From Actinomycetes bacterium (GTDB lineage Bacteria; Actinomycetota; Acidimicrobiia; Acidimicrobiales; Bog-793), in assembly GCA_021798275.1 (NCBI GenBank), contig JAJZMK010000093.1:599-64598 (forward strand): DNA of 64,000 bases, given 5' to 3'. Under the pieces are notes generated by a model, which had not been told where the DNA came from, did no database searches, and saw only the letters and a program-made list of their open reading frames with translations. Of this stretch, positions 352 through 63,460 are shown one piece after another. The position numbers and the translations under genes were made by a program. Position 1 is the stretch's first letter. The number at the start of each line of letters is the position of its first letter.

Positions 352-631
352 CCGAAAAGTTACCGTGGTTTGTAGATAAAATACTCCCAGACATAGCTTG
401 GTATTGCCGATAGAATCTATCGCTTCTCGGTTGCTATCGACAAAATGTGATTTCGAACAAAACGCTGTTTCTAGGCTTATATGACTATAGGTTGTTAGGG
501 TATTTTTATAAAAAAGTTGCCTCTATAGTCTTTATAAGTTAGGAAAAGATGAGTTCTTTTGTAATCAGGACCTATTCGGTAATTTGGTAATATACTCTAA
601 ATAAACAACTCAATAGATTTTTGGAGAAACT

Positions 632-1507
632 GTGCAAAAGTATAAGAGAAAATTTTCAAAGGTAATGATTTTTGCCGCTTCAGGTCTTTTTATGTCCTCC
701 GGCGCTTTGTATGTCACGCAAGCAGGTGCAGCGACTCCTGCCCCAAAGCATATTGCGGGCAAGTCTTACGTGAGCGAAGCGAAGAAATCCGTCAAAAAGG
801 GAACTACGGAGAAGAAGAAATCAAAATCTTCCAATACACAAAGTATAAGCGAGCTTGCTAAAATTATCAGTCTTACACACAAAAAAGTTAATACTGAAAA
901 GTCGGTAGTGGTAAAAATTGGTGCCAGCTTTGCAATCAATAAAGGTGCAATACTTGAACACAGCGACGGGAATATAGCAACATCCGGCGGTGAATTGCAG
1001 GACTACATAATTGTAAATAAAAAGAAGGGTAATCTGACCCAAATTTTAAGTAACAAAGTTGCTTACTGTAAAGGAAATACACTTGGTTTGGAATATGGTT
1101 GCGGCCTGACTCCCGCCCAGGCCAATAAAGCCAACAACAGGTGGGTAGCGATTCCCGATACCAAGAAGAACAGTTCGCTATACGTGAGCGCAGCCGGAGA
1201 TATGACTATCGGTGCCGCTTTCAAAAGCCTGTTTCCCTCTTCTCTGACCTCTTATCACTTGGGGAAAAATTTAGTTATCAACAAAGTAAATTCTTATGCC
1301 ATTGTGGGTACCGTACCCGGAAGTGTCAGCTCGACTCTTCCGAAGGGTATCAGCGAAGATTTTTATGTGGCTGCCGACGGAACCTATCTCCCGGAGAGAG
1401 TACAGCTGACGACCAAAGGAGTCGGAGAACTGGTCGATTTCTCCGCGTGGGATCACGCTAAAGTACCTGCTGCACCCAAGCAGTCGGTGAACATCAGCAA
1501 ATTGTGA
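632..1507 (+). CDS. Secreted Lys-rich hypothetical protein, possibly LppX/LprG-like fold
   Basis: Basic N-terminus, hydrophobic stretch and AGA signal-peptide-like site. The C-terminal FYVAADGTYLPERV..VDFSAWD pattern resembles LppX/LprAFG-like proteins, but this is weak. Confidence 0.6.
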   Translation: MQKYKRKFSKVMIFAASGLFMSSGALYVTQAGAATPAPKHIAGKSYVSEAKKSVKKGTTEKKKSKSSNTQSISELAKIISLTHKKVNTEKSVVVKIGASFAINKGAILEHSDGNIATSGGELQDYIIVNKKKGNLTQILSNKVAYCKGNTLGLEYGCGLTPAQANKANNRWVAIPDTKKNSSLYVSAAGDMTIGAAFKSLFPSSLTSYHLGKNLVINKVNSYAIVGTVPGSVSSTLPKGISEDFYVAADGTYLPERVQLTTKGVGELVDFSAWDHAKVPAAPKQSVNISKL

Positions 1508-1580
1508 TTGGCAATCAAATAACTTTTCGCTCCGGTCATTGACACCATCGATTCGCCGGAGCGAAACGTTACCTATGAAT

Positions 1581-3524: not shown

Positions 3525-3551
3525 GGTCGCTCCTTTTTGTAAGAATGGGGC

Positions 3552-6188
3552 ATGGCCAAAGATACACCTTTAAAAAGTGATAAGCAGGATAAGAATTTGT
3601 TTTCTTCCGCCGAGCATGAGAGACTTGCAACCGATGGTGCTCTTTGGAAAAAGTGGGGTCCTTACCTCTCGGAGCGAGCTTGGGGAACGGTAAGGGAAGA
3701 CTATAGCGCCGGCGGTGAAGCCTGGGAGTACTTCCCCCATGACCACGCAAGGTCCAGGGTATACAGGTGGAACGAAGACGGACTCGGCGGTATTAGTGAC
3801 GATCACCAGTTCCTCTGTTTCGCTTTTGCTTTTTGGAATAAAAAAGACCCTATCATCAAAGAGAGAATTTTCGGTTTGACCGGAAATGAAGGAAATCACG
3901 GTGAAGACGCCAAAGAATATTGGTGGTATTTAGATTCAACCCCCACGCATTCTTATATGCGCTGGCGTTATTTGTATCCGATTGACGCTTTCCCTTATGC
4001 AGACTTGGTGGACACGAACAAAGCTAAGGGTAAACTGGAACCGGAATATGAACTTGTAGATACCCATGTACTAGACAACGGGCGCTATTTCGACATAACA
4101 GCGACATACGCTAAATCATCACCTACGGATTACCGTATCGAGTTGTCTATCACCAACCGGAGTAAAGAGTCTGCAGACATTGACGTAATGCCGACTCTTT
4201 GGTTCAGAAATACTTGGTCATACGGCCGGGATGAACGAAAACCAATTATTTCACGTATGGGAAACTCTTTGAAAGCAACACACGTTTACCTGGGGGATAT
4301 GTATTTATCGGGCGACGGCTCACCCCTTGTTCTCTTTACGGAAAATGAGACCAATTACACAAGACTGTACGACATGAAAGCCGACGGCCCTTTCAAAGAC
4401 GGATTTAATGATTATTTGCTGCACGATTATGACTTAGACCTAAAAGCCACAGAAGGTACCAAAGCGTGTTTTCTCTATCATTTAACAGTTCCACCCGGTG
4501 AAACCGTCAACGTCAAATTGCGGCTGTCTGACAATGAAAGTAGCGGCGTTGCAGATAACTGGACCGCCGTTTGTGAAAAAGCCAAGGAAAACGCTGACGA
4601 GTTTTATGCCGCCGTTACGCCTTCTAATCTGAGTCCGGATGAAAAGATGGTTTTACGCAGAGCGTTTTCCTCCATGCTCTGGTCTAAACAATATTATCAC
4701 TACGACGTAGCGGAATGGCTTGACGGAGACCCAGGTCAGCCTGCCCCGCCCGAGGAAAGGAAACATGGCCGTAATGCAGATTGGAGGCATTTAAATAATA
4801 AAGATATTTTGGCCATGCCGGACAAGTGGGAGTACCCGTGGTTTGCGGCATGGGATCTAGCTTTCCACTGTGCGACTTTGGCTTACATTGATCCCGAGTT
4901 TGCCAAAGAGCAATTGATCTTGCTGTGTCGTGAATGGTATATGCATCCGAATGGACAGCTTCCTGCTTATGAGTGGGCTTTTTCCGATGTCAATCCGCCA
5001 GTTCAAGCATGGGCGGCTTTACAGGTATTTAAAATAGACGGTTCGAAAGACTATTTATTTTTAGAAAAAGTATTTACCAAATTACTTATTAATTTTACAT
5101 GGTGGGTAAATAAGAAAGACGCGGCCGGCAATAATGTCTTTGAGGGCGGCTTTTTGGGTCTTGATAATATCGGTCCGATAGATAGATCCGCCCAATTGCC
5201 CGTGAAGGGTATTCTGGAGCAGTCGGACGGAACTTCTTGGATGGCCATGTACTGTCTCAATATGCTGGAAATAGCATTAGTGTTAGCATTACACGATAAG
5301 GTATATGAAGATTTGGCAATAAAATTTTTTGAGCACTTTGCCTATATAGGAAGTGCAATGTATTCTCAAAATCTATGGGATGAAAAAGACAGTTTCTATT
5401 ATGATCTACTCTGTCTGGACTCAGGAGAAAAAATTCCTTTGCGTGTCAAATCACTGGTCGGGCTGATACCGATGTGCGCTACCTCGACTTTGAGTGAGAT
5501 AGAGGAAATCCGCCAATCTGAATTTGACTATCATATGAAGTGGTTTTTAGAGCGCAAGCCGGAGTTTACCTGCCATATAGTTCACGACGGCTTGACAGAT
5601 GGTGACGGCAGCAAATTGTTTTCTGTTGTTGAACCGGAAAAGCTGAAAAGTCTTTTAAAGATAATGCTTGACGAAAGTGAATTCCTTTCCCCGTATGGAC
5701 TTAGAAGTGTCTCGAGAATCCATAAGGACGACCCTTTTGTATTACAAATAGGTGATTTAGTCGCCAGTGTCGATTATGAACCGGGCGAATCAATCTCCGG
5801 TCTCTTCGGAGGCAATTCCAATTGGCGCGGGCCCATTTGGTTCCCCATTAATTTTTTACTGATAGAGGCACTTAGGCGCTTTCATGACTACCTGGGAGAC
5901 AGTTTTACCGTAGAGTGTCCTACCGGGTCAGGAACTTCTCTACCGCTCGATCAAGTCGCAGATTTCATATCCGACAGGTTGATATCTATTTTCTGTAAAG
6001 ATAAGGATGGGAAAAGACCTGTCTTTGGAGAGTATGAATTATTTAGGGATAAGACTATGGATGACGTGATTTTCTTCCACGAGTATTTCCACGGAGATGA
6101 CGGGCATGGCTTGGGAGCTTCTCACCAAACAGGTTGGACTGGCTTGGTGGCGAACTTGTTAATGGATAAAGGAAAGCGTAAGCGGTAA
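3552..6188 (+). CDS. MGH1-like glycoside hydrolase (GH63 glucosidase family)
   Basis: Motifs WGPYLSERAWGTVREDYS, MPDKWEYPWFAAWDLAFH, NWRGPIWFP, HEYFHGD and GASHQTGWT. Confidence 0.9.
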   Translation: MAKDTPLKSDKQDKNLFSSAEHERLATDGALWKKWGPYLSERAWGTVREDYSAGGEAWEYFPHDHARSRVYRWNEDGLGGISDDHQFLCFAFAFWNKKDPIIKERIFGLTGNEGNHGEDAKEYWWYLDSTPTHSYMRWRYLYPIDAFPYADLVDTNKAKGKLEPEYELVDTHVLDNGRYFDITATYAKSSPTDYRIELSITNRSKESADIDVMPTLWFRNTWSYGRDERKPIISRMGNSLKATHVYLGDMYLSGDGSPLVLFTENETNYTRLYDMKADGPFKDGFNDYLLHDYDLDLKATEGTKACFLYHLTVPPGETVNVKLRLSDNESSGVADNWTAVCEKAKENADEFYAAVTPSNLSPDEKMVLRRAFSSMLWSKQYYHYDVAEWLDGDPGQPAPPEERKHGRNADWRHLNNKDILAMPDKWEYPWFAAWDLAFHCATLAYIDPEFAKEQLILLCREWYMHPNGQLPAYEWAFSDVNPPVQAWAALQVFKIDGSKDYLFLEKVFTKLLINFTWWVNKKDAAGNNVFEGGFLGLDNIGPIDRSAQLPVKGILEQSDGTSWMAMYCLNMLEIALVLALHDKVYEDLAIKFFEHFAYIGSAMYSQNLWDEKDSFYYDLLCLDSGEKIPLRVKSLVGLIPMCATSTLSEIEEIRQSEFDYHMKWFLERKPEFTCHIVHDGLTDGDGSKLFSVVEPEKLKSLLKIMLDESEFLSPYGLRSVSRIHKDDPFVLQIGDLVASVDYEPGESISGLFGGNSNWRGPIWFPINFLLIEALRRFHDYLGDSFTVECPTGSGTSLPLDQVADFISDRLISIFCKDKDGKRPVFGEYELFRDKTMDDVIFFHEYFHGDDGHGLGASHQTGWTGLVANLLMDKGKRKR

Positions 6189-6441
6189 GCAAATCAGTCT
6201 CGTTGGTAGCTGATGGCAGTATCTTTGGAGTCTATTTTATATAATCATCAAGTTCAAGATTTCGAGATGTGATAGTTGCAAAACACCAGGTATGTAGGTT
6301 TTTGAAACCTCGTAAGCTGTTATGTTGAACAACGTAAATAAAAGCCATAAAGACGAAATCACGGTCAGTTTTTGTTTCCTTGATCCACGATTTTGGGTGA
6401 ATCAGCTACCACAGTTGATGTTGGTGCTGAAAAATAATCAG

Positions 6442-6516
6442 TCGGGAAGGGGGGATTCGAACCCCCGACCTCAGCGTCCCGAACGCTGCGCGCTAACCAA
6501 GCTGCGCTACTTCCCG
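6442..6516 (-). tRNA. tRNA-Pro(CGG), CCA not encoded
   Basis: Reverse complement folds as a cloverleaf: CGGGAAG/CTTCCCG acceptor stem, anticodon arm CAGCG-TTCGGGA-CGCTG, GGTTCGAATCC T-arm. Confidence 0.95.
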
Positions 6517-6552: not shown

Positions 6553-7368
6553 CTATAACTTATTTGAAGCCGTATCCGGTGACTCGAGGACAATTTTTGC
6601 AATGCGTCTTTTATCCATTCTGGTAATTTTAAAAGTCCAACCTTCATATCCTAAGATGTCACCTTCTTCAGGGATCTTGCCCAAGATATCAAGCAGGAAA
6701 CCGGCTAGGGTAACGTATTCACCATCCGGTAAGTCTATTTCTAACTCTGAGCGCACTTCATCTATAGCACAGGAACCGTCTACCAAATACCTGGTATTGT
6801 CGATGCGCACTATTTGAGGTGACTTTCCTCTGTCGAATTCATCATGGAGATCTCCTACCAGTTCACTTACCAGGTCATTGATAGTCAAAACACCGGCCAG
6901 GCCACCGTATTCATCTACTACGACGGCAAAACCTCTTTTTCGTAGTCGCATTTCCGCCAATACTTCAAGTGCAGCTCTTGACTCGGGGACTATATATGGT
7001 TCCCTGAGTCTCTTCGTGACGTCTAGGTCTGTCGAAATAAAGTGGCTGTCTTCTGTTCCGCTTTTATCGGCCGCCATGAACTCTTCCAAATGGAAAAGGT
7101 CTTTGGCAAATAGGGTTCCAAGCAAATGATCGAGCTCGCCTTGATAAACGGGAAAGTGGCTGTGACCTGATTTACGCACGGCACTTGCTACGTCGGAAAA
7201 ATGTACCGGTGCAGCCAAAGCCACTATGTCCACCCGCGGTGTCATGAGTTCTTTTACGCTTGAGTTTCGTAGGGAGTCAAGGCCTCGCGTTATCTTTTCT
7301 TCTTGCTCTGATAAAGGGGTAATGTCTGCATTGTTCTCCCGGGAGCGTTTTCGTTGGGGAAATTTCAT
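6553..7368 (-). CDS. CBS-pair/CorC-HlyC domain protein (hemolysin/CorC family)
   Basis: MTPRVDI, GHSHFPVY, VVVDEYGG..G..T.NDL..ELVG and C-terminal TLAGF motifs. Confidence 0.9.
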   Translation of the reverse strand: MKFPQRKRSRENNADITPLSEQEEKITRGLDSLRNSSVKELMTPRVDIVALAAPVHFSDVASAVRKSGHSHFPVYQGELDHLLGTLFAKDLFHLEEFMAADKSGTEDSHFISTDLDVTKRLREPYIVPESRAALEVLAEMRLRKRGFAVVVDEYGGLAGVLTINDLVSELVGDLHDEFDRGKSPQIVRIDNTRYLVDGSCAIDEVRSELEIDLPDGEYVTLAGFLLDILGKIPEEGDILGYEGWTFKITRMDKRRIAKIVLESPDTASNKL

Positions 7369-9309: not shown

Positions 9310-9917
9310 CTTGGTTTTACACTATTATAAGTATCGTCGGACAGTCGTTCATATTGAAAAATTATCGATATAAGGTAATCTTATCACCGTAAGTTCTGAG
9401 ATCGCTTTCGTAATGTCCTCAGATTAGATTTACGCCATTTCTATCCCGAACGTCTCTTTTAGAGTCCCTACTATCGGACATGTGCTAAAAGTATCGCGGC
9501 TGTTTTCCGAAAGCATCTTGCTTTAGATTATAGGTTATAAAAAGTTTTTACATAGAGATATTAATAAATTGGATTTAAGGCACTTAGTAAATTGTTGATG
9601 ATCGCCGATAACGGATTGATATATAGATGATATGTAAATTATTTTCAGGAACAAAAACCAGCATCAAATATTGTCGTCGCTCTCATCAATGTATCGGGGT
9701 ATATCTACCGTGATGAGTATAGCTAATATTGGTAGAGTTTATGTTGTTGTTTCTGGCAAAAGCTTTTGTAAGTTATTACAATATATAGCAAGCTGAGAGC
9801 ATAAATAACGATTACCTATATATCAGATCGATAACCAATCAGATGTATGGCAATAGATCTAATTTGGCAGACGAAGATAATATAACAAGATATGTCTTAC
9901 GATATTGCTCAGCTATT

Positions 9918-10880
9918 TCAAGGATTGTCTATCTCGAAGTCATACATTGATGCAATTTGTGCCCCGATTTCTTTGGAAAGTAGAGCAATGAAATCTTGGC
10001 CCAAGTTTTCTTCTGAAATAAGCGGCAAATAAATTTTTGGCAACGCTATTTTTTCATCCAATTTCTTGAGTAACTCATTTTGAGCCTCTATTTTACCCAT
10101 GCGAAACCGGTTAGCTTGGAGAAGCAGTGCCTCGGTTTTTGTATCGATCGCCGGAGCCCCGGCTTCAAGGGAGGCCTCGATGGGGTTGATATCAAGCCCT
10201 TCCAAGTTTGTATACATTTGATTGATGATCATAGGGCCTAGCGCCACGTCCGTCTTTTCTTCGACGGCATAAGCTGCATCTATGACTTCGTTGACCGGTG
10301 TCTCTTCGGGTATGGTCACCAGAATAACTTGGCAACGGCTGTGATCTTTCAGCATTTCGTCGACTTCGTCAGCTTGCTTTTTCAAAGCCCCACCTCTGGC
10401 CGCAAAAGTGAGGCCGGCGGGGCTCGTCAGCAAAGTAACCGCATGCCCGGTTGCCGGGGCATCCAAGATAATGACATCGGCTAAACGGTCACGCTCGAAT
10501 CTCTTCAGTCGCCCAAGTACCAGAATTTCTTGTATGCCGGGAATGGCGTTTGCGATGACATCTATCGTGTTGGTGGAGATAAGTTTCCGGGAGATCTTAC
10601 CCAAACCGTGCTCCAGTAGGTATTCAAGTAGAGCCTCTTCGGGGGTAATAAGTCGCAAACTAAGGTTATTGTCCACTTCTAAAGATGAATTGATGGGTGG
10701 GTCCTCTATCTCAAAGAAGCTAAATATATGAGAGTCCGTTTCCAAAGTGACAAGAAGGGTTTTTAATCCCTGTTCAGATGCTAACTTGGCCAGAGCAAGA
10801 GATGAAACAGTTTTACCGGTTCCCCCTTTTCCGGTAATGATAAATATATGACTTTTTAAAAAAAACTGTCTTATATCCAC
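9918..10880 (-). CDS. ArsA/Get3-family ATPase (Rv3679-like)
   Basis: TGKGGTGKT Walker A, DAPATGH and PEETPVNE motifs. Confidence 0.9.
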   Translation of the reverse strand: MDIRQFFLKSHIFIITGKGGTGKTVSSLALAKLASEQGLKTLLVTLETDSHIFSFFEIEDPPINSSLEVDNNLSLRLITPEEALLEYLLEHGLGKISRKLISTNTIDVIANAIPGIQEILVLGRLKRFERDRLADVIILDAPATGHAVTLLTSPAGLTFAARGGALKKQADEVDEMLKDHSRCQVILVTIPEETPVNEVIDAAYAVEEKTDVALGPMIINQMYTNLEGLDINPIEASLEAGAPAIDTKTEALLLQANRFRMGKIEAQNELLKKLDEKIALPKIYLPLISEENLGQDFIALLSKEIGAQIASMYDFEIDNP

Positions 10881-12717: not shown

Positions 12718-12720
12718 TAA

Positions 12721-16732: not shown

Positions 16733-16768
16733 TTTACTTAACATACCTACTAGGGTATATTAAGTAAA
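16733..16768 (+). promoter_or_regulatory. CsoR/RicR-type operator within a sigma-A-like promoter
   Basis: TACC-TACTA-GGGTA matches the RicR motif TACC-N5-RGGTA. It is flanked by TTTACTTAA/TTAAGTAAA and lies between TTTACT and TATATT with a 17-bp spacer. Confidence 0.55.
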
Positions 16769-19914: not shown

Positions 19915-19962
19915 TTACCTGAATAAAATTATCAGGCTATCCTGATAATTTTATTCAGGTAA
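19915..19962. repeat. Perfect 22-bp inverted repeat with 4-nt loop, upstream of the MFS gene
   Basis: TTACCTGAATAAAATTATCAGG-CTAT-CCTGATAATTTTATTCAGGTAA. Confidence 0.9.
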
Positions 19963-20000
19963 GCCTGATAAAGTGGTTATCTTATGCTGGAGGATAACCG

Positions 20001-23548: not shown

Positions 23549-23604
23549 GGTATCCTACAACACCACGCACTATTTAGGTCTCTCTAAAAGGACTGATATG
23601 ATAT

Positions 23605-23650
23605 AAAAGCTTAGGTGGTACCGGTATATATCGGCACCACCTAAGCTTTT
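23605..23650. terminator. Bidirectional intrinsic terminator between groEL and nadE
   Basis: AAAAGCTTAGGTGGT..ACCACCTAAGCTTTT hairpin with A and T tails, between convergent genes. Confidence 0.8.
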
Positions 23651-23783
23651 AACAATTTATTTATTTTTCCCATCAAACAGAGTATTTATTGATTATCTTT
23701 TGTCTATAAATATATTTTAGTTATTAGCTGGCTTAGCGGCAGCAAAATTCCAATACTCTGATACGTGGAAAATTATCTTAGTT

Positions 23784-32698: not shown

Positions 32699-32909
32699 AA
32701 ATATATTTTGGCTAAAGATATTTTTTCTGCTTTAAGACAAAAAGAGGCCTCCATTATGCAAGTCTTATAGGTGCCTTTAATAAATTTGTTTTCAGGTAGA
32801 CATTTATGAGATTAAAACAAATTTGCTTTGCAAAAACATCTTCGTTTTATGCAAAGCTTTTGTCCGGGAACGGTTTTGGCCTGGTTTATGCTGTGGTGCG
32901 GAGGAGCAG

Positions 32910-39636: not shown

Positions 39637-40138
39637 TACTAAGGTCCTTATCCCTCGGTCACGTTATTTTGACAGCGAACGCGATTTCCCGTATGAGACA
39701 GCCGGCAGTTTTGCCAGACCAGGGTTGTCGTGTCGTAGCATCGTTATCATTATAATAAGTTTTTTACTGTACATATAGTCATTAACTTAATGTTAAAAGA
39801 TAATATTTTGACCGGCGCCCACCCCCCCCATTTGCTAGGAGCCGTATTTTACCTGTCTCATCTCAAGACGTGACCGAGCAACGGGCTTTGTTTTGGCTGT
39901 TGAAAGTATATTTTGCTAATCGCCAGTTGTTATATGGCTCTACTCGCTCTCTTCTGAAGATATAGAGCTGTATTTTAAGCCTTTATAAATGTTTACAAGG
40001 TTTCTCGGAGCATTTCTTGCGCTTATCTGGTGGCAGATTAAAATCGCTTCGGCATTGGCGATGAAACGTACAACCTGTTTATTACATATAAGCACCATTA
40101 TATTGTATGGATAATGCTTATTTATAAACGAGTCCGTT

Positions 40139-43577: not shown

Positions 43578-43729
43578 GTAAAATATTTTTTAGACTACCA
43601 GGCAATAGAATTTTTGCCTGTATGCAATCGGTACTTGGACTTAAAAATAGGCGGGAGTAAAGAGATGTATTCTGCCTGGTCTATTATATTTATCTATATC
43701 AATAAAATATTTTCATTTTGGTTTTATAG

Positions 43730-47757: not shown

Positions 47758-49323
47758 TCAAGATTTAGCTTCGATCTCAGTATCAGAGGTTTCACGGTTC
47801 TTAAAAAGTACAGCCTCTATCTCTTGTAGAAACCCTATAACTTCTTTAGCTGAGTCTTGAAACGCTTTTTCTGCTTTGACCTGTTCTTTAGTGCACCAGT
47901 CAAGTACTTTTCTCAGAAGTGATTTTTTCTTTTCTCTCTTTTTATTACCTGTGCAACTCAAGGTATCGGCAACATCTGATGCAAACTCATCGGGGTAATA
48001 ACTTTCAAAGTCAGCTTCTTTCCAAGTGCGAAATTGATTCGGTGACCACGAAGAAAATTTTTTATGTAAATTATCTACTATCTTTTTTCCATCATCATCA
48101 CCGTCGACAATCACCCAAGCTCTATTTAGATAAAGATTTTGTTCCAGATGAGCAAATAAAAAAAGTCTATTAAAATCATTGAAGGTTGCTTCGACATTTT
48201 TATTTCCTCTGGCTGAAACTATTTGTATACGAGATAATTTGGGGGCGAACCATGGAACTAAGTATTTTTGAATGATACTCTGAGCCGATGATTCTTCTAA
48301 GATTAGCCAACCTTCGCAGGTGTCAAAATCATAAAGCTCATAGCCAAGTTGACGCAAAACTTGGATGCGGGTAGGAGTTGACTTATCAACTTCTTTGATC
48401 GACGATGTCGGTATGCTAAGGCCTTTGTATTCTTGGGCGACATGCAATAATTTACTCCTGCTATGGGCACCTAAATATTTGACTACGATATTGGAGTGAG
48501 TGGAAATAACAAATTGATTAGACTCCGCCTTTTCCCATATAAACTCTAATATTGCCTTTAAAGCCTCGGGGTGAAGGTCATTTTCCGGTTCTTCGATTAA
48601 AAAGAGGTTACCATCTGCCATGCACAAATCAGTGATGAGACCAAGCAAGTCGGCTACCCCTTCCCCCATCTCTTCAAGAGGGATATAAGAATCCCCAACT
48701 GATATGCCAGCTTGCTGTCCATTTTGTGATGCGTGTGTAGTGACGGTAAAGCCAAGTACATTTTGACAAAGTTCGTCGTATTCTTTCCATCGTGGGTTCG
48801 TTGGGTTAGAGAGACGAGCTACTTTAGAAACCAAATTAGAAAGATTATCGCTTATCTCATTTTGATTTTTAATATTTACTATCTGATTAAAATTGGTAAC
48901 CTTGCGCTTTGATAAGTAAGTATATAGAAAATTATCTGGTTCGAAGGAATGAAAAAGTTGGTTATTAGGTTGACCCATAGTATATTTGTGCGATCCTTTT
49001 TGTATGGTAAGTAGTGAATTCCTATCTTTGGCTAAAGAGATAACGAGTGGATCACTACCTGGAGAAGCTATGTATGAGTACTTCTTGTCAATGTTTTTTA
49101 AGTGATAGTTAATAGATAATTGATTTTCATCAAATCTAAGATATTTGTTGATAAGGCTATCAAGGAGTACTAGATCTGTCTGTAAAAGATGCAATGCTTT
49201 AATAACAGCCGACTTTCCGCTGTTATTATTGCCGATCAAGAGATTGATCTGATCAAGCTCTATTCCTCCGGTGTCTGTAAAACACTTAAAGTTGCCTATG
49301 CGTAGATTTGTAAGTTTCATCAA
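47758..49323 (-). CDS. ABC-type ATPase fused to a TOPRIM-like domain (OLD-like ATP-dependent nuclease)
   Basis: LRIGNFKCF, GNNNSGKS (Walker A), MGEG signature, LIEEPENDLHP and STHS. The C-terminal LILEE..VIVDGD..DFESY motifs are TOPRIM-like. Confidence 0.75.
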   Translation of the reverse strand: MMKLTNLRIGNFKCFTDTGGIELDQINLLIGNNNSGKSAVIKALHLLQTDLVLLDSLINKYLRFDENQLSINYHLKNIDKKYSYIASPGSDPLVISLAKDRNSLLTIQKGSHKYTMGQPNNQLFHSFEPDNFLYTYLSKRKVTNFNQIVNIKNQNEISDNLSNLVSKVARLSNPTNPRWKEYDELCQNVLGFTVTTHASQNGQQAGISVGDSYIPLEEMGEGVADLLGLITDLCMADGNLFLIEEPENDLHPEALKAILEFIWEKAESNQFVISTHSNIVVKYLGAHSRSKLLHVAQEYKGLSIPTSSIKEVDKSTPTRIQVLRQLGYELYDFDTCEGWLILEESSAQSIIQKYLVPWFAPKLSRIQIVSARGNKNVEATFNDFNRLFLFAHLEQNLYLNRAWVIVDGDDDGKKIVDNLHKKFSSWSPNQFRTWKEADFESYYPDEFASDVADTLSCTGNKKREKKKSLLRKVLDWCTKEQVKAEKAFQDSAKEVIGFLQEIEAVLFKNRETSDTEIEAKS

Positions 49324-49525
49324 TTATTATTTTATCCATAAAAAAACTTAAGAAAATAATTTGACGTATTTATTATCAAAATGCTTGTTAAAGTAAACTA
49401 TACTATTATAGTATACAGTGTAATAAGTTTACTTGCGATAGCCAAATAACTTAAATCATTTGATCAGTATATAAAAGGTTTTAAAAATTGAATGCTATGT
49501 AATTCATTATAATTGGTTTTAAGGT

Positions 49526-52500
49526 TTAGGTATAACTCAAAGTATGTATATTTATTTTAGACCCCAGGGACTCTTTGGCTAGCAAAAGCAAGTGCTGATG
49601 ATGGGTAAAGAGTAAAACCTGACTATATTCAGAGAGGCGACTTAGACAACGCAGAGCTGCCGATGAGCGGGTATCGTCAAAATTAATTAATATATCATCG
49701 AAGATTACCGGCATTTTTCCTATATGTTGAACACTTTCTTCGATAGCGGCGATTCTTAAAGCGAGATATAGCTGGTCCCGTGTCCCATCGGACATTTCCT
49801 CCAGCCATTTTTGCTCATTTTCTTTCGAATATGCACATAGAAGCTTTCTATTCTTTTCACCTTCTTCAGCCGATATTTTTTGGTATCTACCATCGGTAAT
49901 TTCTTTGAAATAACCAGAGGCTTTTTGTAAGAGGGGATTTTGGTGTTTGGCACCGTAGCGGCTGATGGCTTCTTCCGCTATATAATTAGCCAGTATCAAA
50001 CGGGCATACTGCTCCCCGTTCTCTATAATCTCTGCCAGGCAATTTTCTGCCAGAGCTGCTTTTCCTGCGGCAGCTTCGGAGCCATCCATCTCATCTATTT
50101 TTAATTGAATCGCTATTTTATCTTCTTGGACTATTGCTAAATCTTTTTCTAATTCTTTGCTTTCGGTATCAATTTGTTTAAGTTCTGTATCAATTTTTTC
50201 TATCTCGGTATCAGATATATTTTGAAATGCTTCCGATAAAGACCTTCCTCCCGTCTGGTCAATTAGTTCATTTTCTATTCTGTTAATTTCTTGCTCAAGC
50301 GAATAATATGTTAATGAGTTAGTAACTAAAGATGAGATAGCATCACTATATTCAATTCCATTTTCTTTAAGCAATTCTTTTAATTCCGCTTCACAACCGA
50401 CAAGCTGTGAAGTCAAAGATTCCATGCCGTCGCGCTCGGTTGTGAGACTTTCGCATATGCTTAGATACTTGTCGTAAGTAGCCCTCTCTTCCTTTAATAG
50501 CTTACCAAGAGTACGCGCGGCATCGATATGTGTAGTTTCTGATAGATTCAAGAAACCGTTTGCCGCTGAGCGCAATTGTTGCTCAAAGATATCAGAGCGG
50601 TGGTCGATACCTGCAATCCTGTCTGTCAGCGCGTTGATGGACTGTACCAAGCTATCAATCTGGTCTATTTGAGAGAGTAAATTCTTACTTTCATTGGGGG
50701 AGTTGACTTGAAATCCCAACCCTGCAAGAAGCGTATTGAATTCTTCTTTTGCCAGGTCTTTTGTTTTGGACGTTTTTGTTAAGGCATCTTCTAATTTATC
50801 GTATTTTTGTTTTAAAGATATAAGTTCTTTTTTATGGTTATTTCGCTCTTGTTCACTTTTGAGCAAGTTATCAAGCACTTGTTTGGCTTGGGAGATCAGA
50901 GGTGCTATGTCTGATCCCGTGATTGGACTTACACCATTGTCAGAAAGTGCATTTGCCAAGGTATTACGGCAGTTCCTCCTTTTTTTGAAAACAGATCTGA
51001 GTGATGACTTTGTCTCAAGGTATCTCTTGTAGCTTTTTTTAATTTCTGCGAAGTGATTTTTCCAGATTTCTAATTCACTATGGGATTTAGGGATAGAAAG
51101 ATAAGGCCACGCATCTGCCCATTGGGTGAGTTGAAGTGCCAAGTCGTTTTCGCTATTTCGTATCTTAGATGAGATGTAGGTAATTTCATTAGTAGTGTCT
51201 ACCAATTCAGCTTCCAGACGATTCCTCTGCGCTGTCTTGTCAGCCTCTTGCCATAGTCTATCGACTGTTTCGTCAGCAAGAGCAAGATGTGCTTCGTAAG
51301 CTGATGCCAAATCCAAGTCAGTTTTATACGAAAACCCATCGCCAGTTACTTTATTTTTGTACAACCAGGAAGCTTTGACGGTTTCCCATTCCTCATTTCG
51401 CATTTGCCTTACTTTTGCGAGATCGTCGTTGCTCGGAAGGTCTTGCGTCGCAGTAAGAGTTTTAAGCTCAGTTTCTTTATCATGTAGTTTTTCTTTTAAC
51501 GTATCCAGCTGGTTATTTAGTAACTGAATGTTTACTTCTGAGTCTCTTAGTGCGGTAGACATTTCCTGTATTTGTAGATCTTCGGGTAAGCGGCTTTCCA
51601 TCACAATTTTGACTTGATCAGGGTCTAGGTCAATTTGTATAGCTGCCTCACTCAGACTGCTACAGATTGCGTTCAGTTCTGACTCCAGTCTTGCAAGTTC
51701 CTCATCAAGGGCTATATTGGAAGCTTCAATGGCGGCTTCAAGTAAAGGTATATTTTGAGACTCCGGTAAGTCAGACAATAAGTAATTGATGTCTTCAATG
51801 ACGCTTTTAGTTTGCGTCAATTCCTCGTTGGTACTGTCGTACTTACTTTGCGCATTACTCCAAATTTCCTGAACATCTCTGAGGGTATTTTTCGTATCGA
51901 GAATTGGTTTGATTTTGTCGATGTCATCTGTAGAGGTAGATGTCCCGAAGACGCTCTCTAGAATTCTCAACACTTTATGTCTGTTCTCGTCAAGGTCTTT
52001 CTGTAATTGAGCTTCGTCTTCGACGCCTTGGGCGTAGGCCATAATATTGGCTCCCAGAGCATCTATTTCATCGCCGCGATCGAGAAGGTTTTTGTTAGGC
52101 TGGATTCCTTGGAGCTTTTCTTCAAGGTTGCTAATGGTATTCTGCAAAGATGAGATGCTACCTTGCAGCTCGGTCTTTTGTGTTAATTTTGCATCTATTT
52201 TCTCAGCCGATGATTTCGGCAAAATATGACTAACGTCGAGAGAGTTTTTTTGTATTGTGAGCTGTTCTTTTCTTTTTAAGTTGGGTAGTACGGCACGCTG
52301 CATAGTTAAATACTGTCTCCGGCTATCTAATACATTAAGCTGCCTCTTGAGCTCTTCCTCGTCCTGTATCTGTTTTTTGAGGCGTTTTATTAGATCTTCG
52401 TAGCTGGAGGGCTTGAGTGAGAGATCCGCAATTTGTTTTTTGAGGTTGTGATAATCTCTGAGAGATTTATTGATTATTTTAGTAGAAGCCGTTGGGGCAA

Positions 52501-53017
52501 ACAGTTTTCCCGTCTCTTGTTTAAATTGCTTAAGAATGTCATCGATTTCTTTAACGCCGATACCTGCGGCAAATATAGTTTCGTTGAATGCTCCATCACG
52601 CTCTACCAACCTAGTGGTCTCCTCCAATAGCTGTTCCCAGCCCAAGGTGAAGATGGATTCGAATTCTTCCTTCCCAACGCCATTTAGTAAGTAACGTTGC
52701 CAATTATCTTTGTCTACGGGAGTATCTGATGTGCGTTCGACGAGGTCATTCTTGCTTTTTTTGTAGCGGATAACGTCGGAGACGTTACCATCTTGGTCCT
52801 CCAAAACACCTCCGATTTGTAATTTATTCATCGGGTGAAAGAAGTCAAAAGAAGTCCTAGTGTCAATGCCATAAAGCAGAGAGGTTAAAGCTTTTCTGGC
52901 TGTTGTTTTCCCTGCTTCGTTCGGACCGTAAATGACGTGAAGACCTGGGGCTGATAAGTCAATATGAACGTTTGAAAAATTTCCGAATGCTATCAGATCG
53001 AGAGAGTTAATCTTCAT
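49526..53017 (-). CDS. YhaN-like (AAA_27) SMC/Rad50-like ATPase with long coiled coil
   Basis: IYGPNEAGKTT, MSDGTRDQLYLALR, DDILINFDD and FTHH. ATG 53017 overlaps the end of the upstream nuclease gene. Confidence 0.88.
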   Translation of the reverse strand: MKINSLDLIAFGNFSNVHIDLSAPGLHVIYGPNEAGKTTARKALTSLLYGIDTRTSFDFFHPMNKLQIGGVLEDQDGNVSDVIRYKKSKNDLVERTSDTPVDKDNWQRYLLNGVGKEEFESIFTLGWEQLLEETTRLVERDGAFNETIFAAGIGVKEIDDILKQFKQETGKLFAPTASTKIINKSLRDYHNLKKQIADLSLKPSSYEDLIKRLKKQIQDEEELKRQLNVLDSRRQYLTMQRAVLPNLKRKEQLTIQKNSLDVSHILPKSSAEKIDAKLTQKTELQGSISSLQNTISNLEEKLQGIQPNKNLLDRGDEIDALGANIMAYAQGVEDEAQLQKDLDENRHKVLRILESVFGTSTSTDDIDKIKPILDTKNTLRDVQEIWSNAQSKYDSTNEELTQTKSVIEDINYLLSDLPESQNIPLLEAAIEASNIALDEELARLESELNAICSSLSEAAIQIDLDPDQVKIVMESRLPEDLQIQEMSTALRDSEVNIQLLNNQLDTLKEKLHDKETELKTLTATQDLPSNDDLAKVRQMRNEEWETVKASWLYKNKVTGDGFSYKTDLDLASAYEAHLALADETVDRLWQEADKTAQRNRLEAELVDTTNEITYISSKIRNSENDLALQLTQWADAWPYLSIPKSHSELEIWKNHFAEIKKSYKRYLETKSSLRSVFKKRRNCRNTLANALSDNGVSPITGSDIAPLISQAKQVLDNLLKSEQERNNHKKELISLKQKYDKLEDALTKTSKTKDLAKEEFNTLLAGLGFQVNSPNESKNLLSQIDQIDSLVQSINALTDRIAGIDHRSDIFEQQLRSAANGFLNLSETTHIDAARTLGKLLKEERATYDKYLSICESLTTERDGMESLTSQLVGCEAELKELLKENGIEYSDAISSLVTNSLTYYSLEQEINRIENELIDQTGGRSLSEAFQNISDTEIEKIDTELKQIDTESKELEKDLAIVQEDKIAIQLKIDEMDGSEAAAGKAALAENCLAEIIENGEQYARLILANYIAEEAISRYGAKHQNPLLQKASGYFKEITDGRYQKISAEEGEKNRKLLCAYSKENEQKWLEEMSDGTRDQLYLALRIAAIEESVQHIGKMPVIFDDILINFDDTRSSAALRCLSRLSEYSQVLLFTHHQHLLLLAKESLGSKINIHTLSYT

Positions 53018-54287
53018 TGTCAACCCCTTGTATCTTGAGCAGATAAGCAAGCATCGAAACCGCTTCATCTGTCATGTTCGCCAGATGCTGGGTACTTAAA
53101 AAATCATCAAGACCATATTGTTCCGCTGTGTTTATCTTATTCTTGAGTGAGGAAATGACAGAGAGTGGATTGTTGTCACTCAACAAACTCGGTAGGTCAG
53201 TTTTGATTGTTTGCGCGATCTCTTTTAATTCTCCCAAGAGCTCATTATTTGCGAAAGTGCCCAGGCTTTTCTCGTAAAAGGAGGAAACTTTTACTTTTTC
53301 TATCCAGATCGGAGCCTTATGAAAATCAAGAGACATAGCGCGAATCTCATTGGTTAAGTGGGTTATTTTTTCCTGCAGCATACCGGTTAAATTGGTATTT
53401 CCCGTAAACTCAATGCGCACGGCATAAGTTTTACTGCCATCTACACATGTAGACTCCAGTTGTTCATAACATGTAGATATGCAGTCTTCAAGTGATTTCG
53501 CCTCCGATATATCTACGTAGCAATGTTCCCAGCGGACATTGGCTAGTACTAACTCATCTAAGGAAGGCTCTCCGTCTGTAAATGTGACGAGTGATGCCCC
53601 TTTGGGGCCTGTTTCGCGAATATGACGGCCTTGTAGGTTCCCGGGAAAAACTATATAAGGATCGGTATCGATAATTTTCCGCTTATGGACATGACCTAGT
53701 GCCCAGTAATCGTACCCCTTAGATTTTAGGGTATCTAGGCCACAAGGGGCATATCTGTCATGGCCAAGTGTGCCATCAAAGCAAGTATGGAGCATACCTA
53801 TATTGATCAGCCCCAAATCCCCTTTGGGATAATTAGCCGCTATGTTATCTGAGGTATCTCTTGTGGGGTAGCTTTGTCCATATACTGCTACGCCGAGATC
53901 GTCGAAAATGCGAACTTCAGGCTCTTTACTACCAAGTAATGTAGTATTCGGTGGAAATCGGAGTTTTTTGGTAAGTTGGCTTTGCGCGTCATGGTTGCCT
54001 TGGATGATGACGACCCGGATATTATTAGCGTTCAGCTCACTCAATCGATCGATGACGAACAGACCCGTATTATAATCTTTCCAATCACCGTCGTAGAGGT
54101 CGCCGGCTATCAGAAGCAGATCTACTTTCTCCTCAATGGCTGTTGAGACTAGAGATTCAAACGCATTTCGTGTCGCTGTCCTCACTGTTTCGGCAGGGGA
54201 TCCCTCATAGGCAACCAAACCATGCATCGGGCTGTCGATGTGCAGGTCTGCAGCGTGCAATAAAGTAATTTTATCCATAGTCTTCAA
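53007..54287 (-). CDS. YhaO-like Mre11/SbcD metallophosphoesterase DNA exonuclease
   Basis: HAADLH, AGDLYD, GNHD, YWALGHVH and PGNLQGR..RETG.KG motifs. Confidence 0.9.
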   Translation of the reverse strand: MKTMDKITLLHAADLHIDSPMHGLVAYEGSPAETVRTATRNAFESLVSTAIEEKVDLLLIAGDLYDGDWKDYNTGLFVIDRLSELNANNIRVVIIQGNHDAQSQLTKKLRFPPNTTLLGSKEPEVRIFDDLGVAVYGQSYPTRDTSDNIAANYPKGDLGLINIGMLHTCFDGTLGHDRYAPCGLDTLKSKGYDYWALGHVHKRKIIDTDPYIVFPGNLQGRHIRETGPKGASLVTFTDGEPSLDELVLANVRWEHCYVDISEAKSLEDCISTCYEQLESTCVDGSKTYAVRIEFTGNTNLTGMLQEKITHLTNEIRAMSLDFHKAPIWIEKVKVSSFYEKSLGTFANNELLGELKEIAQTIKTDLPSLLSDNNPLSVISSLKNKINTAEQYGLDDFLSTQHLANMTDEAVSMLAYLLKIQGVDNED

Positions 54288-54860: not shown

Positions 54861-55049
54861 TGATGGGTTGAAGTTGCCTTTGTCTTATAACAGATTATAT
54901 ACATTAGATAGATGTATATAAATACCTTTTTTTATTGATTATTTATAGTAAAAATAGGATTTTTTGCCCGGAAATAGAGAAATTGTAGAGATAATTTCTA
55001 TAGGAAAATAATTCATCAGCCGATTGGCAGTGAAAACGGTAGTTGGCTG

Positions 55050-57390: not shown

Positions 57391-57405
57391 TAGGGTAGTT
57401 GTATC

Positions 57406-58778: not shown

Positions 58779-60778
58779 GTTGGCAGTGGAATAAGCTCAG
58801 AGGCAGCGGGAAAGCGACTCTTCGCGAATTTAGACAAAAAGAGAAACGTTCCAAAAAAATTGCTGCCGAGAAAGCATCCGCCCATATTTCCTGGCGCATT
58901 AGTGCCATCGGGGTAATATCGCTCGCTCTCGTTGTGGTCTTAGCCCTTCGCCTATGGTCTATACAGGTACTAAACGCCTCTGTGTATAAAAAAATGGCGA
59001 ACCAGACTATCATCAAGAAAGTCCCTATCGATCCACCCAGAGGACTTATCCTGACAAGATCCGGGCAGGTTCTGGCTGGTGATGTTTCAGAAGAAGTTGT
59101 CACCATCAAACCGACCATAGGACCGACTGGTAAAAATTGGGTTGCGTTGGATCCGAATGGGGAAGCTAACGTATCGGCTTTGCTGGGTATCAAAGAATCT
59201 CAGATATACACTGACATGAACAATGTTCAAAATATTCCTTATCAACCTGTACCTATAGCTTATGGGGTGAATCAGCAAGATATATTGCAGATTAACGAGC
59301 ATCCTAACGAGTATGGCGGTATTGCCGTAGAACAGCAGTACTTGCGTACGTATCCTCAAAATTCTCTGGCCTCGCAAGTAATAGGTTATGTCGGTCAAAT
59401 CAATTCGTTAGAGTATCAAAGTGTAGCCAAAACAGGTATTTACAGTGAGAACGATCCCACGTATGGCCAAACAGGTTTGGAGGCCTCGTATGAGAAGTAT
59501 CTTTACGGAAAGCCCGGTTATCAATTAGAGGAAGTGGATCCGGCCGGTAATCCCGTGGCCTATATAGGAGTTACTCCTCCACAGGCCGGAGACTCGGTAG
59601 TCTTGAATATGGATTACGGCCTGGAAAAGACGCTGACTAATGACTTAACGCAACATCTTATAGCTCTTAGGAACGGCCAATTCGGAGGACCTTATCCCGC
59701 TCCCTCCGGAGCCGGTGTGGTTATCAACATCCATAACGGGCATGTCTTGGCCATGGTTTCGGTTCCCGGTTATAACAACAATCTATGGGTGGGGGGAATT
59801 TCCAACGCGGCCTATCAAAATCTCGTCAATGCTTACGGGTATCCTTTAAATAACTACGCCATACAAAGTCCTAACCCACCTGGTTCGGACTTCAAGATCG
59901 CCACGTCGACTGCCGCTTTAGATGATGGCCTCATTACCCCCAGTTATGAATTCTATGACCCCGGTTATTATACGGTCGGTAACTTAACATTACATGACGC
60001 TCCGGGTGATCACCCGGGGTGGATTACGGTGGTACCGGCCTTGGCACTCTCAAGTGACGACTTCTTTTACAATATAGGTGCCATGTTTTGGCAGCAGCAA
60101 TCAAAGTATGGCGTTACTCCAATTCAAAATATGGCGGCCAAGTACGGCTTTGGGGTCCCATCCGGTGTGGATTTACCGCAAGTCGATAACGGGCAGGTAG
60201 ACTCGCCTTCTCTCAGAAAAGTCTTACATAAGTTGGCCCCTGCCGTCTATCCTTCTACGTATTACGAAGGTGACAATATGGAAATGGCTTTCGGGCAGGG
60301 AGAGACTTTGATAACTCCCTTGGAACTGGCGAATGCTTACGCTACTTTTGCTAACGGCGGAACAAGATATGCCCCGGAGATGGCCAACGCCATAATATCT
60401 CCATCCGGCAAGATAGTAACAAAAATCGCACCGAAAGTTATGGCGCACGTTCCTTATGGCTCACAGGCCAATTACCAGGCTATACTGGCCGGTTTTGAAG
60501 GAGCTGTAGACAACCCAATAGGTACGGCATATCAGGATTTTACCAACTTCCCATTGAATAAATGGGAAGTTGCCGGAAAGACAGGTACGGCAACCGTCCG
60601 TCACGGTTTCCCCCCCACGGCTTGGTTTGTGGCATTTTTCGGCCCTATCGGCAATCCCGAATACGCTGCGGCAGTGGAGGTGTCGGCCGGTGGCTATGGG
60701 ACAAGTGGGGCCGCTCCTGTCGTCAGACAAATTATCGATTATCTGATGTCAAATCCTCCTCCAAAAGTTAAATACTAA
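58775..60778 (+). CDS. mrdA: Class B penicillin-binding protein 2
   Basis: PPRGLI, GQTGLE..YE..L.G, PGSDFK (SxxK), SSD and KTGT motifs. Confidence 0.9.
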   Translation: MSWQWNKLRGSGKATLREFRQKEKRSKKIAAEKASAHISWRISAIGVISLALVVVLALRLWSIQVLNASVYKKMANQTIIKKVPIDPPRGLILTRSGQVLAGDVSEEVVTIKPTIGPTGKNWVALDPNGEANVSALLGIKESQIYTDMNNVQNIPYQPVPIAYGVNQQDILQINEHPNEYGGIAVEQQYLRTYPQNSLASQVIGYVGQINSLEYQSVAKTGIYSENDPTYGQTGLEASYEKYLYGKPGYQLEEVDPAGNPVAYIGVTPPQAGDSVVLNMDYGLEKTLTNDLTQHLIALRNGQFGGPYPAPSGAGVVINIHNGHVLAMVSVPGYNNNLWVGGISNAAYQNLVNAYGYPLNNYAIQSPNPPGSDFKIATSTAALDDGLITPSYEFYDPGYYTVGNLTLHDAPGDHPGWITVVPALALSSDDFFYNIGAMFWQQQSKYGVTPIQNMAAKYGFGVPSGVDLPQVDNGQVDSPSLRKVLHKLAPAVYPSTYYEGDNMEMAFGQGETLITPLELANAYATFANGGTRYAPEMANAIISPSGKIVTKIAPKVMAHVPYGSQANYQAILAGFEGAVDNPIGTAYQDFTNFPLNKWEVAGKTGTATVRHGFPPTAWFVAFFGPIGNPEYAAAVEVSAGGYGTSGAAPVVRQIIDYLMSNPPPKVKY

Positions 60779-61291
60779 GCTCTTTGTTGGATCTATGATG
60801 TGTCCCAAAGCCTTCATATCTTGTGCTTATGATAAAAAGCATTTACCGCCTTCTGTTGTTTTCAAAGCAACAAAGTTCGTCGATGAAATGGCTTTCCCAC
60901 TACCCCTAGCAGTCATATTCTAAATTTGCCAAGTTAACAGCAAAGTTTGTCTGTAATTTGATTACTTTAACGGTACTATTAAGAACAAGATGACATTTGT
61001 AACACAAGATTTACCTGAGACAGCACAACAGTTTTTTTCATGCGTCTTGGGAGCTCTTGTGGTAATTGCCGCAGTAAGCTGCTTCTATATAAAAGTCAAT
61101 TACCTCTATTTACAAGGTAGTTTGGGAACAGACTGTGATATAAATCCCAAACACAATCAAGGTTCGCCAAGATCCTTTATTGACAAACCTTTGTATGGAT
61201 TGACCCATAAGTCGTCTTTAGATCCATATTTTTCTATTTCAAACCAGAGCCCTAATAAAAAATCCGAGGGCCTGGGAAAGGGATTTTTCCA

Positions 61292-63259
61292 ATGTCGCAT
61301 TTTTCACCAAATCAAAACGAGGGTGAACCTAAATCAGACAATTACACCAATAAGGCAAATCAGCCTGAATATGATTTTTTGGTTCAACAAAACTCCGATA
61401 ACTCACACCAAGAGGCCATCTCTGTTTTTAAGGATGGTGGCAATGGAGATCCGGTAAGCAATCGGAAACCCGTTGTCGGAGACCGTGGTGTCTCTAAAAG
61501 ACCCTATCAACAAAAGCAATTTGTAAAGCCTCATCCTCAAAAGACTTTATCTGCCGATGATGGGGATCATCGAAATGTCATAGGTATTACAAACAAATCC
61601 TCCGAGGTGGCAGATAAGATCATGTCTCCATCAGAGGCAATCTTATCGGCTACAGATCGTGGATACAATAATTCCGCGCAGCGTCGAATTGCGCTAAAGA
61701 CTGCTGAAAAGCCCGGGAGCGCCGTCTTTGCGGCGACAGAAAGCGAAGAAGTCACTCTAAACAGTGCTGAAGTGTCGGTAAAACGTGAAGTCGGCGAAAC
61801 TTTGCCCAATAAGCGAAATCCCCGCAACAATACAAACCGTCGCCGTGTGGAACGGCAAAAAGATTATAAGTTGACAGAATCTCCCGATTCTCTACCAAAG
61901 CAGACCGTAAGCACAGACCCATCTATTCGTCAAGGCCGCTACAGTAGAAAACCATCATCAAATACAGGTCGCCAACTTGGCAGATATTTGATGTGCGTAC
62001 ATGTGCGGAGCGATGCGACAGAGATCGCCGTTGTCGAAGGACGAAGGCTCGTGGAACATCACGTCGCCAAAGAGAGAGACAACGGTAACCAGATAGACGG
62101 GAATATCTACTATGGCCGGGTTATCAATGTCTTGCCGGGGATGGAAGCCGCTTTTGTCGATATCGGAACCCCCAAAAACGCGGTTTTATATTGGGGAGAT
62201 GTTCAATTGGAAGATGAGGAGAAGGATTCCGATACGGATTCCGTTGTCAAATTCCATACAAAGAGAATAGAACAGTTATTAAAACCAGGCCAGATGATAC
62301 TTTGTCAGGTTACCAAGAATCCTATAGGCTTAAAGGGCGCCCGGCTCACCCAGGAAATATCTTTAGCGGGGCGCTTTGTGGTCTTGATGCCAGGAAGCGA
62401 TTCCGCCGGTATTTCCAAGCGTCTCGATGATCACGAAAGAAAAAGGCTGCGTAAGTTTATCGACGATGTAAAGCCGCAAAATTGTGGCCTAATTGTCAGG
62501 ACTGCTGCGGCCGGTGTTTCCATAGCGGAGCTACAGGCCGATGTGGAGCAATTGAGTTCCAAATGGGCTGAGATTGAATTAAAGATAAAGAGCAGCAAAG
62601 GCCCAGAACTCCTCTATAGCGAACCTCATATGGCCATGAGGGTAATCAGAGAAGAACTTAATGATAATTATCGGGCTGTGATCATTGACGATCACGAGTT
62701 ATATCTGCTGCTGAAGTCGTATGTGGAAGATTTCGACCCGTATCTGGCCGAGAAAATATCATATTATGACGTCGGAGTTGAAAAGCTTCCCATATATGAG
62801 AAGTATTCCATTCACGAACAGCTTCATAAAGCCTTAGATAAGAAAGTTTGGTTAAGCTCCGGTGGATCACTGATCATAGAAAGAACCGAAGCCTTGACTG
62901 TTATTGACGTAAACACGGGCAAAAACGTGGGTAAGTCTTCACTCGGTGAAACCGTGTATCAAAATAACATGGAAGCGGCGCGGGAGATAGCCAGACAATT
63001 GCGTCTTCGTGATATAGGCGGCATAATAGTAATAGATTTTATCGATATGGAAGATAAAGCCCACCGCGATATGGTTGTTTCCATATTGCGCCAAGCTTTA
63101 GCTGAAGATAAAACACCTACTCAGGTCTACCCTATATCCGATTTGGGCTTGGTAGAAATGACGCGCAAACGCATCGGCGAAGGCCTTGTTGAATCTTTGT
63201 CGGATGAATGTCCCCATTGCCATGGGATGGGATATATCTTTGAAAATAGGATAAAGTAG
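61292..63259 (+). CDS. rne: Rne/Rng-family ribonuclease with a long disordered N-terminal extension
   Basis: GNIY.GRV..VLPGMEAAFVDIG, KGARLT, IDVNTG, GGIIVIDFIDM and CPHC.G.G motifs. Confidence 0.92.
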   Translation: MSHFSPNQNEGEPKSDNYTNKANQPEYDFLVQQNSDNSHQEAISVFKDGGNGDPVSNRKPVVGDRGVSKRPYQQKQFVKPHPQKTLSADDGDHRNVIGITNKSSEVADKIMSPSEAILSATDRGYNNSAQRRIALKTAEKPGSAVFAATESEEVTLNSAEVSVKREVGETLPNKRNPRNNTNRRRVERQKDYKLTESPDSLPKQTVSTDPSIRQGRYSRKPSSNTGRQLGRYLMCVHVRSDATEIAVVEGRRLVEHHVAKERDNGNQIDGNIYYGRVINVLPGMEAAFVDIGTPKNAVLYWGDVQLEDEEKDSDTDSVVKFHTKRIEQLLKPGQMILCQVTKNPIGLKGARLTQEISLAGRFVVLMPGSDSAGISKRLDDHERKRLRKFIDDVKPQNCGLIVRTAAAGVSIAELQADVEQLSSKWAEIELKIKSSKGPELLYSEPHMAMRVIREELNDNYRAVIIDDHELYLLLKSYVEDFDPYLAEKISYYDVGVEKLPIYEKYSIHEQLHKALDKKVWLSSGGSLIIERTEALTVIDVNTGKNVGKSSLGETVYQNNMEAAREIARQLRLRDIGGIIVIDFIDMEDKAHRDMVVSILRQALAEDKTPTQVYPISDLGLVEMTRKRIGEGLVESLSDECPHCHGMGYIFENRIK

Positions 63260-63460
63260 GTTTTACTCAGATCCTGATTTGGAAAGCAAAACCCAAAAGC
63301 GAAGCTAAGCTCACAGAAAGACTACGAGCAACTTTTCGAGAAGTAACTTATGACTTTGGTAAGTGATTTGAGAGCTTGGTTAAAAATAATCACCCAAAGA
63401 TATAAACAATTGCGATAACTGCGTTTTGACGGGTAAGTTTATTGCTATGATCAATAACCT

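Follow-up and report, generated by a model that had tools for sequence, protein, structure and literature searches.

The question raised by this stretch of DNA is whether the spacers between its genes fold as long, rod-like inverted repeats, and what process or selection would produce such structures. The window, meaning the whole 64,000-nucleotide stretch analysed here, corresponds to positions 599-64598 of contig C60 in genome G000, a 2.09-Mb draft of 156 contigs with 46% GC. The original prediction held that most intergenic spacers form long rods, arising either from decayed inverted duplications or from selection to keep RNA or single-stranded DNA (ssDNA) paired. With a probability of roughly 0.7, the rods are instead chance pairings in A/T-rich spacers whose ends were picked by eye, and what stands above chance is a surplus of short, perfectly paired inverted repeats, probably generated by polymerase template switching, in which one arm of a near-palindrome would serve as the template for rewriting its partner. 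Underneath lies a moderate but real increase, at the level of the genus, in a mutational process that is already known.

G000 was compared with G001, a syntenic congener that also has 46% GC and approximately 70% nucleotide identity within genes, and with L145, which represents a third related species and spans 8.4-25.7 kb of the window at 68-81% identity. The metagenome scan yielded only two loci. G000 and G001 combine 46% GC with a genome size of 2.1 Mb, in a surrounding family of approximately 70% GC and 2.6-4.5 Mb; the loci of GroEL relatives from the same family have 63-73% GC, with the exception of G001 (46%). The gene content is consistent with a placement of this low-GC genus in Acidimicrobiales. 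Sequencing runs containing G000 DNA come mainly from mine drainage and tailings. Genes of G000 were called with an in-house script (1757 genes, 83% coding), and small genes may sit within the regions treated as spacers. Runs of N were excluded from repeat density counts.

The evidence that carries this reading comes first of all from inside genes. Coding repeats were compared with shuffles that preserve the protein, the codon usage and the next base, with gene ends trimmed; the test covered 1.28 Mb of G000, 0.47 Mb out of 727 kb of G001 and 13 control sets of 65-250 kb each, the 11.7 kb of L145 coding sequence being too little for it. Perfect inverted repeats with arms of at least 10 bp and an inner spacer of at most 15 nt number 72 in G000 against 23.3 expected, and 28 in G001 against 8.1 and 7.2 expected in two runs of the test. 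The control sets, which include the high-GC family members G004, G006 and G013, range from 0.27 to 1.55 times expectation, none of them with p<0.05 at this arm length. The excess is even over inner spacers of 0-15 nt and then ends. For arms of at least 9 bp, the pooled counts of the genus are 208/110 at 0-15 nt and 101/95 at 16-30 nt, and in G000 both mirror repeats and inverted repeats with inner spacers above 15 nt stay at about 1x. Inner spacers of 0-2 nt, too tight for an RNA loop, are also enriched. Wobble stems in genes are equal on both strands (G-T 275/254, A-C 265/247), with no G-U bias on the transcribed strand. Orthologs retain 58% of the pairs, compared with 55% expected under independent drift (33 alignable cases of 38). 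The coding excess is approximately threefold, strand-symmetric, species-specific, biased towards perfect rather than wobble pairing and found in each of the two species sampled from the genus; a copying process that acts on DNA, with its products sieved by protein selection, leaves such a pattern.

Intergenic spacers are rich in perfect short repeats as well. Across 939 G000 spacers, 106 repeats with arms of at least 12 bp and an inner spacer of at most 30 nt were counted, against 0.6 expected from shuffles, and 191 of 1040 spacers hold a perfect inverted repeat with arms of at least 10 bp (8-28 bp arms overall). Arms of at least 18 bp make up 43 of 185 repeats of at least 12 bp, compared with 9 of 147 in controls (p 1.4e-5). 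Divergent spacers, in which no terminators are expected, contain 17 repeats of at least 15 bp in 87 kb of G000 and 4 in 87 kb of controls.

These repeats have almost no common sequence. The ten regions cited as rods in the original prediction are indeed single-copy, save one 34-nt A/T-rich match, and of 1007 spacers just 52 show homology to any other. REP, ERIC and MITE families are likewise made of intergenic inverted repeats, whereas no multi-copy sequence family was found at the cited sites, so that a repeat-family or MITE origin was rejected. A HIP1-like short palindrome was also rejected, six-base palindromes being at expectation (mean 1.0, highest 1.21).

Pairing was graded with a rod score, an unbranched-stem score that splits pairs by span, combines stacking energies with a simplified treatment of loop costs, and was calibrated on shuffles and positive controls. 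Pairs spanning more than 50 nt count as long-range and shorter ones as local. The features are as follows.

475..540, unstranded: imperfect hairpin of 66 nt, the best quoted example, with z -3.8/-4.3 on chosen ends and local p 0.135 (not significant) in spacer 352-664.
1520..1571, unstranded: hairpin with 16-bp arms between convergent genes, local z 5.3, with an 11-bp perfect core at 1525-1566; likely a two-way terminator.
6204..6411, unstranded: 11-bp closing helix with a branched, non-rod interior on the 3' side of tRNA-Pro, long-range z 3.4-3.8, single copy.
16733..16768, unstranded: palindrome upstream of a glutaredoxin gene (assigned by Pfam), its core kept in G001 and L145 according to alignments.
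19915..19971, unstranded: longest perfect repeat in the window, with 22-bp arms (19915-19962), upstream of an MFS gene and bridged by contigs from two other studies.
23604..23651, plus strand: hairpin after groEL, local z 10.6; likely the groEL terminator.
32782..32824, unstranded: perfect 11-bp arms with a 21-nt inner spacer between co-oriented genes, local z 3.2.
39654..39877, unstranded: 11-bp helix enclosing 203 nt, a class at chance level genome-wide; whole-spacer long-range z -0.8.
43580..43713, unstranded: gapped long-range inverted repeat plus local hairpin, long-range z 3.7-3.9, the second real long-range case.
49200..49228, unstranded: intragenic perfect inverted repeat, 10-bp arms, 9-nt inner spacer.
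54895..54921, unstranded: A/T-rich perfect inverted repeat between co-oriented genes, 10-bp arms, 7-nt inner spacer.
60544..60572, unstranded: perfect inverted repeat in a penicillin-binding-protein-like gene, 12-bp arms, 5-nt inner spacer.

Several of these sites illustrate how arms differ between species. In the repeat at 60544..60572, 7 of the 12 pairs are formed in the ortholog from G001, and two amino-acid differences from G001 lie inside it while the 20 flanking codons are identical in protein. The palindrome at 16733..16768 has arms of 15 bp in G000 and of 7-8 bp in G001 and L145. The 19915-19962 repeat rests on a tandem pair of ATCAGG-N4-CCTGAT boxes at a distance of 23 bp, and its left flank carries a reversed copy of the linker. 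This two-box pair recurs before an Nramp gene in G000 (C11:3059-3097), at the orthologous place in G001 (C36:128024-128062) and before an MFS gene in L145 (approximately 9900-9945). In each of the four copies the left flank matches, in reverse complement, the linker of that very copy, over 15, 9, 4 and 6 bases, and the linkers differ. Such private complementarity would point to arm copying, since protein recognition would be expected to conserve sequence instead.

Ordinary selection for intrinsic terminators and for the operators that dimeric regulators bind, in the absence of any raised copying, is the strongest of the competing explanations, and it accounts for many single sites. Two intergenic classes can be distinguished, namely G/C-core hairpins near stops and A/T-rich palindromes in promoter regions. 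The former keep their place across species while their sequence turns over, and on this comparison they appear to behave as terminators; the hairpin after groEL, for instance, has counterparts at an identical position in the G001 and L145 alignments, but with altered sequence. Local pairs have a mean z of 1.20 in G000 spacers, with a peak of 2.46 between convergent genes. Local strength is correlated across 147 orthologous spacer pairs (rho 0.34), 10 of 18 strong hairpins being common to both species, and in the first 90 nt past stops G-T stems outnumber A-C stems by 21 to 10. Several of the long A/T-rich palindromes adjoin ArsR, PadR and TetR genes or precede Nramp and catalase-peroxidase genes (14 loci chosen for long repeats), and a dyad core is kept before regulated or regulator genes, as in palindromic operators. 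The tandem 16-bp palindromic box before MFS and Nramp genes likely marks a metal-regulator regulon; the box resembles DtxR/MntR sites, and G000 encodes a DtxR-family protein. Ordinary selection nevertheless leaves unexplained the threefold coding excess, its strand symmetry and species specificity, and the flanks that are complementary yet not conserved in sequence. Many arms exceed in length and perfection what function would require, and comparable repeats also lie in genes. As a sole cause, ordinary selection is therefore unlikely.

Template switching is in keeping with arms that differ between relatives and yet stay complementary within each of them. Orthologous hairpins show such paired changes, in selected examples rather than a census, and in lineages of this kind paired changes need not mean RNA selection. 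A stalled nascent strand would fold back, or cross the fork, at a short near-palindrome, copy itself and return. Terminators and dimer-binding operators may serve as seeds, whose arms would grow to 15-28 bp in spacers, and within genes it would be mainly synonymous events that outlast selection.

A further alternative is selection at the DNA level for short hairpins or cruciforms bound by a structure-specific protein irrespective of sequence. This would likewise be strand-symmetric, free of sequence preference and confined to short inner spacers, and the cut-off near 15 nt is sharp. Coding repeats are, however, not retained in orthologs, and no candidate protein came to light, though no search aimed at one was made. 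We consider this explanation improbable.

The long rods themselves fared worse, and we regard them, whether as decayed inverted duplications or as products of RNA or ssDNA pairing selection, as very improbable for most spacers. Complementary blocks are present in all ten intervals quoted for them. With hand-chosen ends, these intervals give RNA folding z-scores on the plus strand from +0.05 to -3.8 (mean -2.1), with 5 of 10 below -2; DNA parameters place 3 of 10 below -2, and several intervals fold as branched structures, not as rods. When ends are defined by genes, the whole-spacer Vienna z has a mean of -0.85 and a median of about -0.5 (153 of 672 G000 spacers folded). The original prediction was to be given up if z-scores matched those of shuffled sequence or of spacers in comparable genomes. 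Like-for-like means are -0.60 in G000 (n=70), -0.61 in G001 (n=50), -1.95 in E. coli (n=60) and -1.24 in a low-GC panel (n=60); whole G000 spacers fold less than those of E. coli, and on the condition set beforehand the prediction is refuted. G000 spacers without a local hairpin average -0.26 (n=59).

Long-range pairing leads to the same result. Its mean z is 0.09 in 711 G000 spacers and 0.52 in E. coli, where the excess is larger. Simulated decayed inverted duplications, used as positive controls, score z 5 to 12 and are detected in 93% of cases at 30% arm divergence and 53% at 40%; no decayed inverted duplications of 100-300 nt were seen, although those with arms diverged by as much as approximately 40% would have been picked up. 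Among native spacers, 7.3% exceed z 2 and 1.7% exceed z 3, compared with 5.0% and 1.0% after shuffling, and 16 perfect helices of at least 10 bp were counted around 121-250 nt of enclosed sequence, where 13.8 are expected. In the window, long-range Watson-Crick z exceeds 2 in 4 of 36 spacer pieces and 3.5 in 2 of 36 (6189-6438 and 43578-43744); at the second, the closing decamer is itself palindromic and occurs twice. Long-range strength is uncorrelated between the orthologous spacers (rho 0.00, 147 pairs), and an Rfam search found no family at any cited spacer, only tRNAs passing the threshold. With no long-range excess, no conservation, no G-U bias in genes and no Rfam family, selection for paired RNA or ssDNA as rods finds no footing. 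Rods are not pervasive, and the long-rod claim is to be dropped as a general property; as first written it reflects chance for the most part, together with ordinary terminators and operators. The quoted examples are better-folding spacers, two of which may be real long-range cases. A lineage-wide template-switch process, also proposed at the outset, survives as a process but not in scale, the repeats being 20-65 bp with inner spacers to approximately 15 nt, not 100-300-nt decayed rods.

An assembly or amplification artefact is highly improbable. G000 is a draft in many contigs, and some contigs of other runs end in the middle of palindromes that have no spacer. Contigs assembled in other studies nevertheless contain these palindromes, differing at 0-5 positions over kilobases, which shows that they are not assembly errors; the second species has the same coding excess, and gene order is common with G001.

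Several observations weigh against template switching combined with chance pairing as the explanation. Two control sets are slightly raised at arms of at least 11 bp (G006, p 0.037; a GC 40-50% panel, p 0.014), and G001 has one raised mirror-repeat cell (12 vs 4.1). Amino-acid change is not in excess at the coding repeats, where identity is 0.78 compared with 0.71 in the flanks. The long intergenic tail is stronger in G000 than in G001 (p 0.10 between the two), and G001 has no repeats of at least 15 bp in 23 kb of divergent spacers and none of at least 20 bp in 727 kb. The density of arms of at least 15 bp is 4.2 per 100 kb in G000, 2.9 in G001, 0.8 in E. coli and 1.9-5.6 in panel bins; the G000 value is high, not extreme, and within the low-GC panel range (5.6 and 2.6). 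Six-base long-range stems in G000 spacers are 6-16% above shuffles. A simulation of end-picking gave a mean z of -0.22, far from the -2.1 of the quoted examples; it omitted the choice of 10 from approximately 45 pieces, and end-picking alone is thus not demonstrated as the cause of the quoted z-scores. No single switching event could be caught between close strains, and G001 is too distant for this. Run X6 on L292 revealed a sister lineage of approximately 91-92% identity that co-occurs in a tailings sample; it is replaced or unalignable around several palindromes, but elsewhere in spacers too.

What raised the rate in this genus may be sought among its repair genes, whose absences are read from drafts that are 86% and 94% complete. 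A second DnaE together with an ImuB-like match was not found in G000 or G001 and is present in 6 of 6 other family genomes, while Ku, also not found in either, is present in 5 of 6. MutS, NucS and canonical SbcD gave no match over the cut-off in G000, G001 and G004, G006 having MutS-domain matches, and RecQ was found in 0 of 8 genomes. High-GC relatives without the excess share these absences, which therefore do not suffice as causes. RNase HI and DinB, for which G000 gave no match, are both present in G001, so their absence is not genus-wide. Loss of Rho or exonuclease VII was rejected as a cause, both being present.

DnaE2 has been tied to high GC (PMC3274465), and in E. coli template switching is stimulated when replication stalls (PMC7202029). 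Speculatively, the rate could have risen because the DnaE2/ImuB bypass polymerases were lost in a family where mismatch repair was not found. In its full form, this account would have the genus lose DnaE2/ImuB (and Ku) in a family already lacking mismatch repair, with forks rescued by fold-back copying under a ruler of approximately 15 nt. We put it forward tentatively, as a doubtful explanation. The DnaE2/ImuB link is only a correlation and a lead, because it rests on one lineage and on draft genomes. If true, it would provide a natural record in which the loss of defined repair genes is linked to a drop in GC from approximately 70% to 46%, and to a genome-wide perfecting of palindromes that rewrites operators and codons. 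A literature search, with subscription journals largely outside its scope, yielded no report on this genus and none making a connection with dnaE2.

The excess of short perfect inverted repeats is not, in outline, undescribed, as had first been supposed. According to the survey by Huang and Mrazek (PMC4060949), intergenic inverted repeats are almost always over-represented and coding ones are extreme in some genera; its supplement lists close inverted repeats in coding DNA at +4 for Azobacteroides and +2 for Acidimicrobium ferrooxidans. It was based on the complete genomes then available, and the sections consulted contain no strand-symmetry or ortholog test. Further reports ascribe proteobacterial perfect short repeats to template switching (PMC5941160) and describe template switching with short spacers in yeast genes (PMC8604942). 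Quasipalindrome correction under the Ripley model (PMC5941160, PMC8604942 and PMC7202029) shares with the present case an excess of perfect short repeats, concerted arms, a preference for short spacers and occurrence in coding DNA; it differs in that here a genus is raised relative to the rest of its family, the effect stops at spacers of roughly 15 nt, and no single events were caught. Expansion of inverted-repeat arms at yeast promoters, as reported in PMC13100816, resembles the operator-like palindromes found here, whose arms have grown beyond a conserved core, although the present case is bacterial. What is added is that a known multi-base mutation process differs approximately threefold between a genus and its own family, marking genes and operators, together with a testable link to the loss of a bypass polymerase.

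Some minor observations concern individual sites. Adjoining tRNA-Pro, window positions 5801-6495 and 6622-6958 carry more divergent alleles (19-33 differences) in other strains, possibly a recombined segment. Several TAC...GTA boxes surround G/C runs at 16562-16607 and 16733-16768, before the glutaredoxin gene and a second groES copy; they resemble CsoR-type sites. Small repeated hairpin families lie near contig ends (G000:C45:48, C111:12714, C48:771 and C54:174; C23:9274 and C98:173), with one member perfect and its relatives imperfect, and are perhaps the ends of mobile elements. At G000:C76:47578-47612, an inverted pair of DnaA-box-like motifs lies in a divergent spacer that is strongly conserved in G001 and is probably the replication origin region. 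Finally, a low-GC island follows tRNA-Gly at 47758-54287 of the window; it is absent from the syntenic G001 match and encodes an AAA_15/AAA_21 ATPase as well as a pair consisting of an AAA_27 protein and a metallophosphoesterase.

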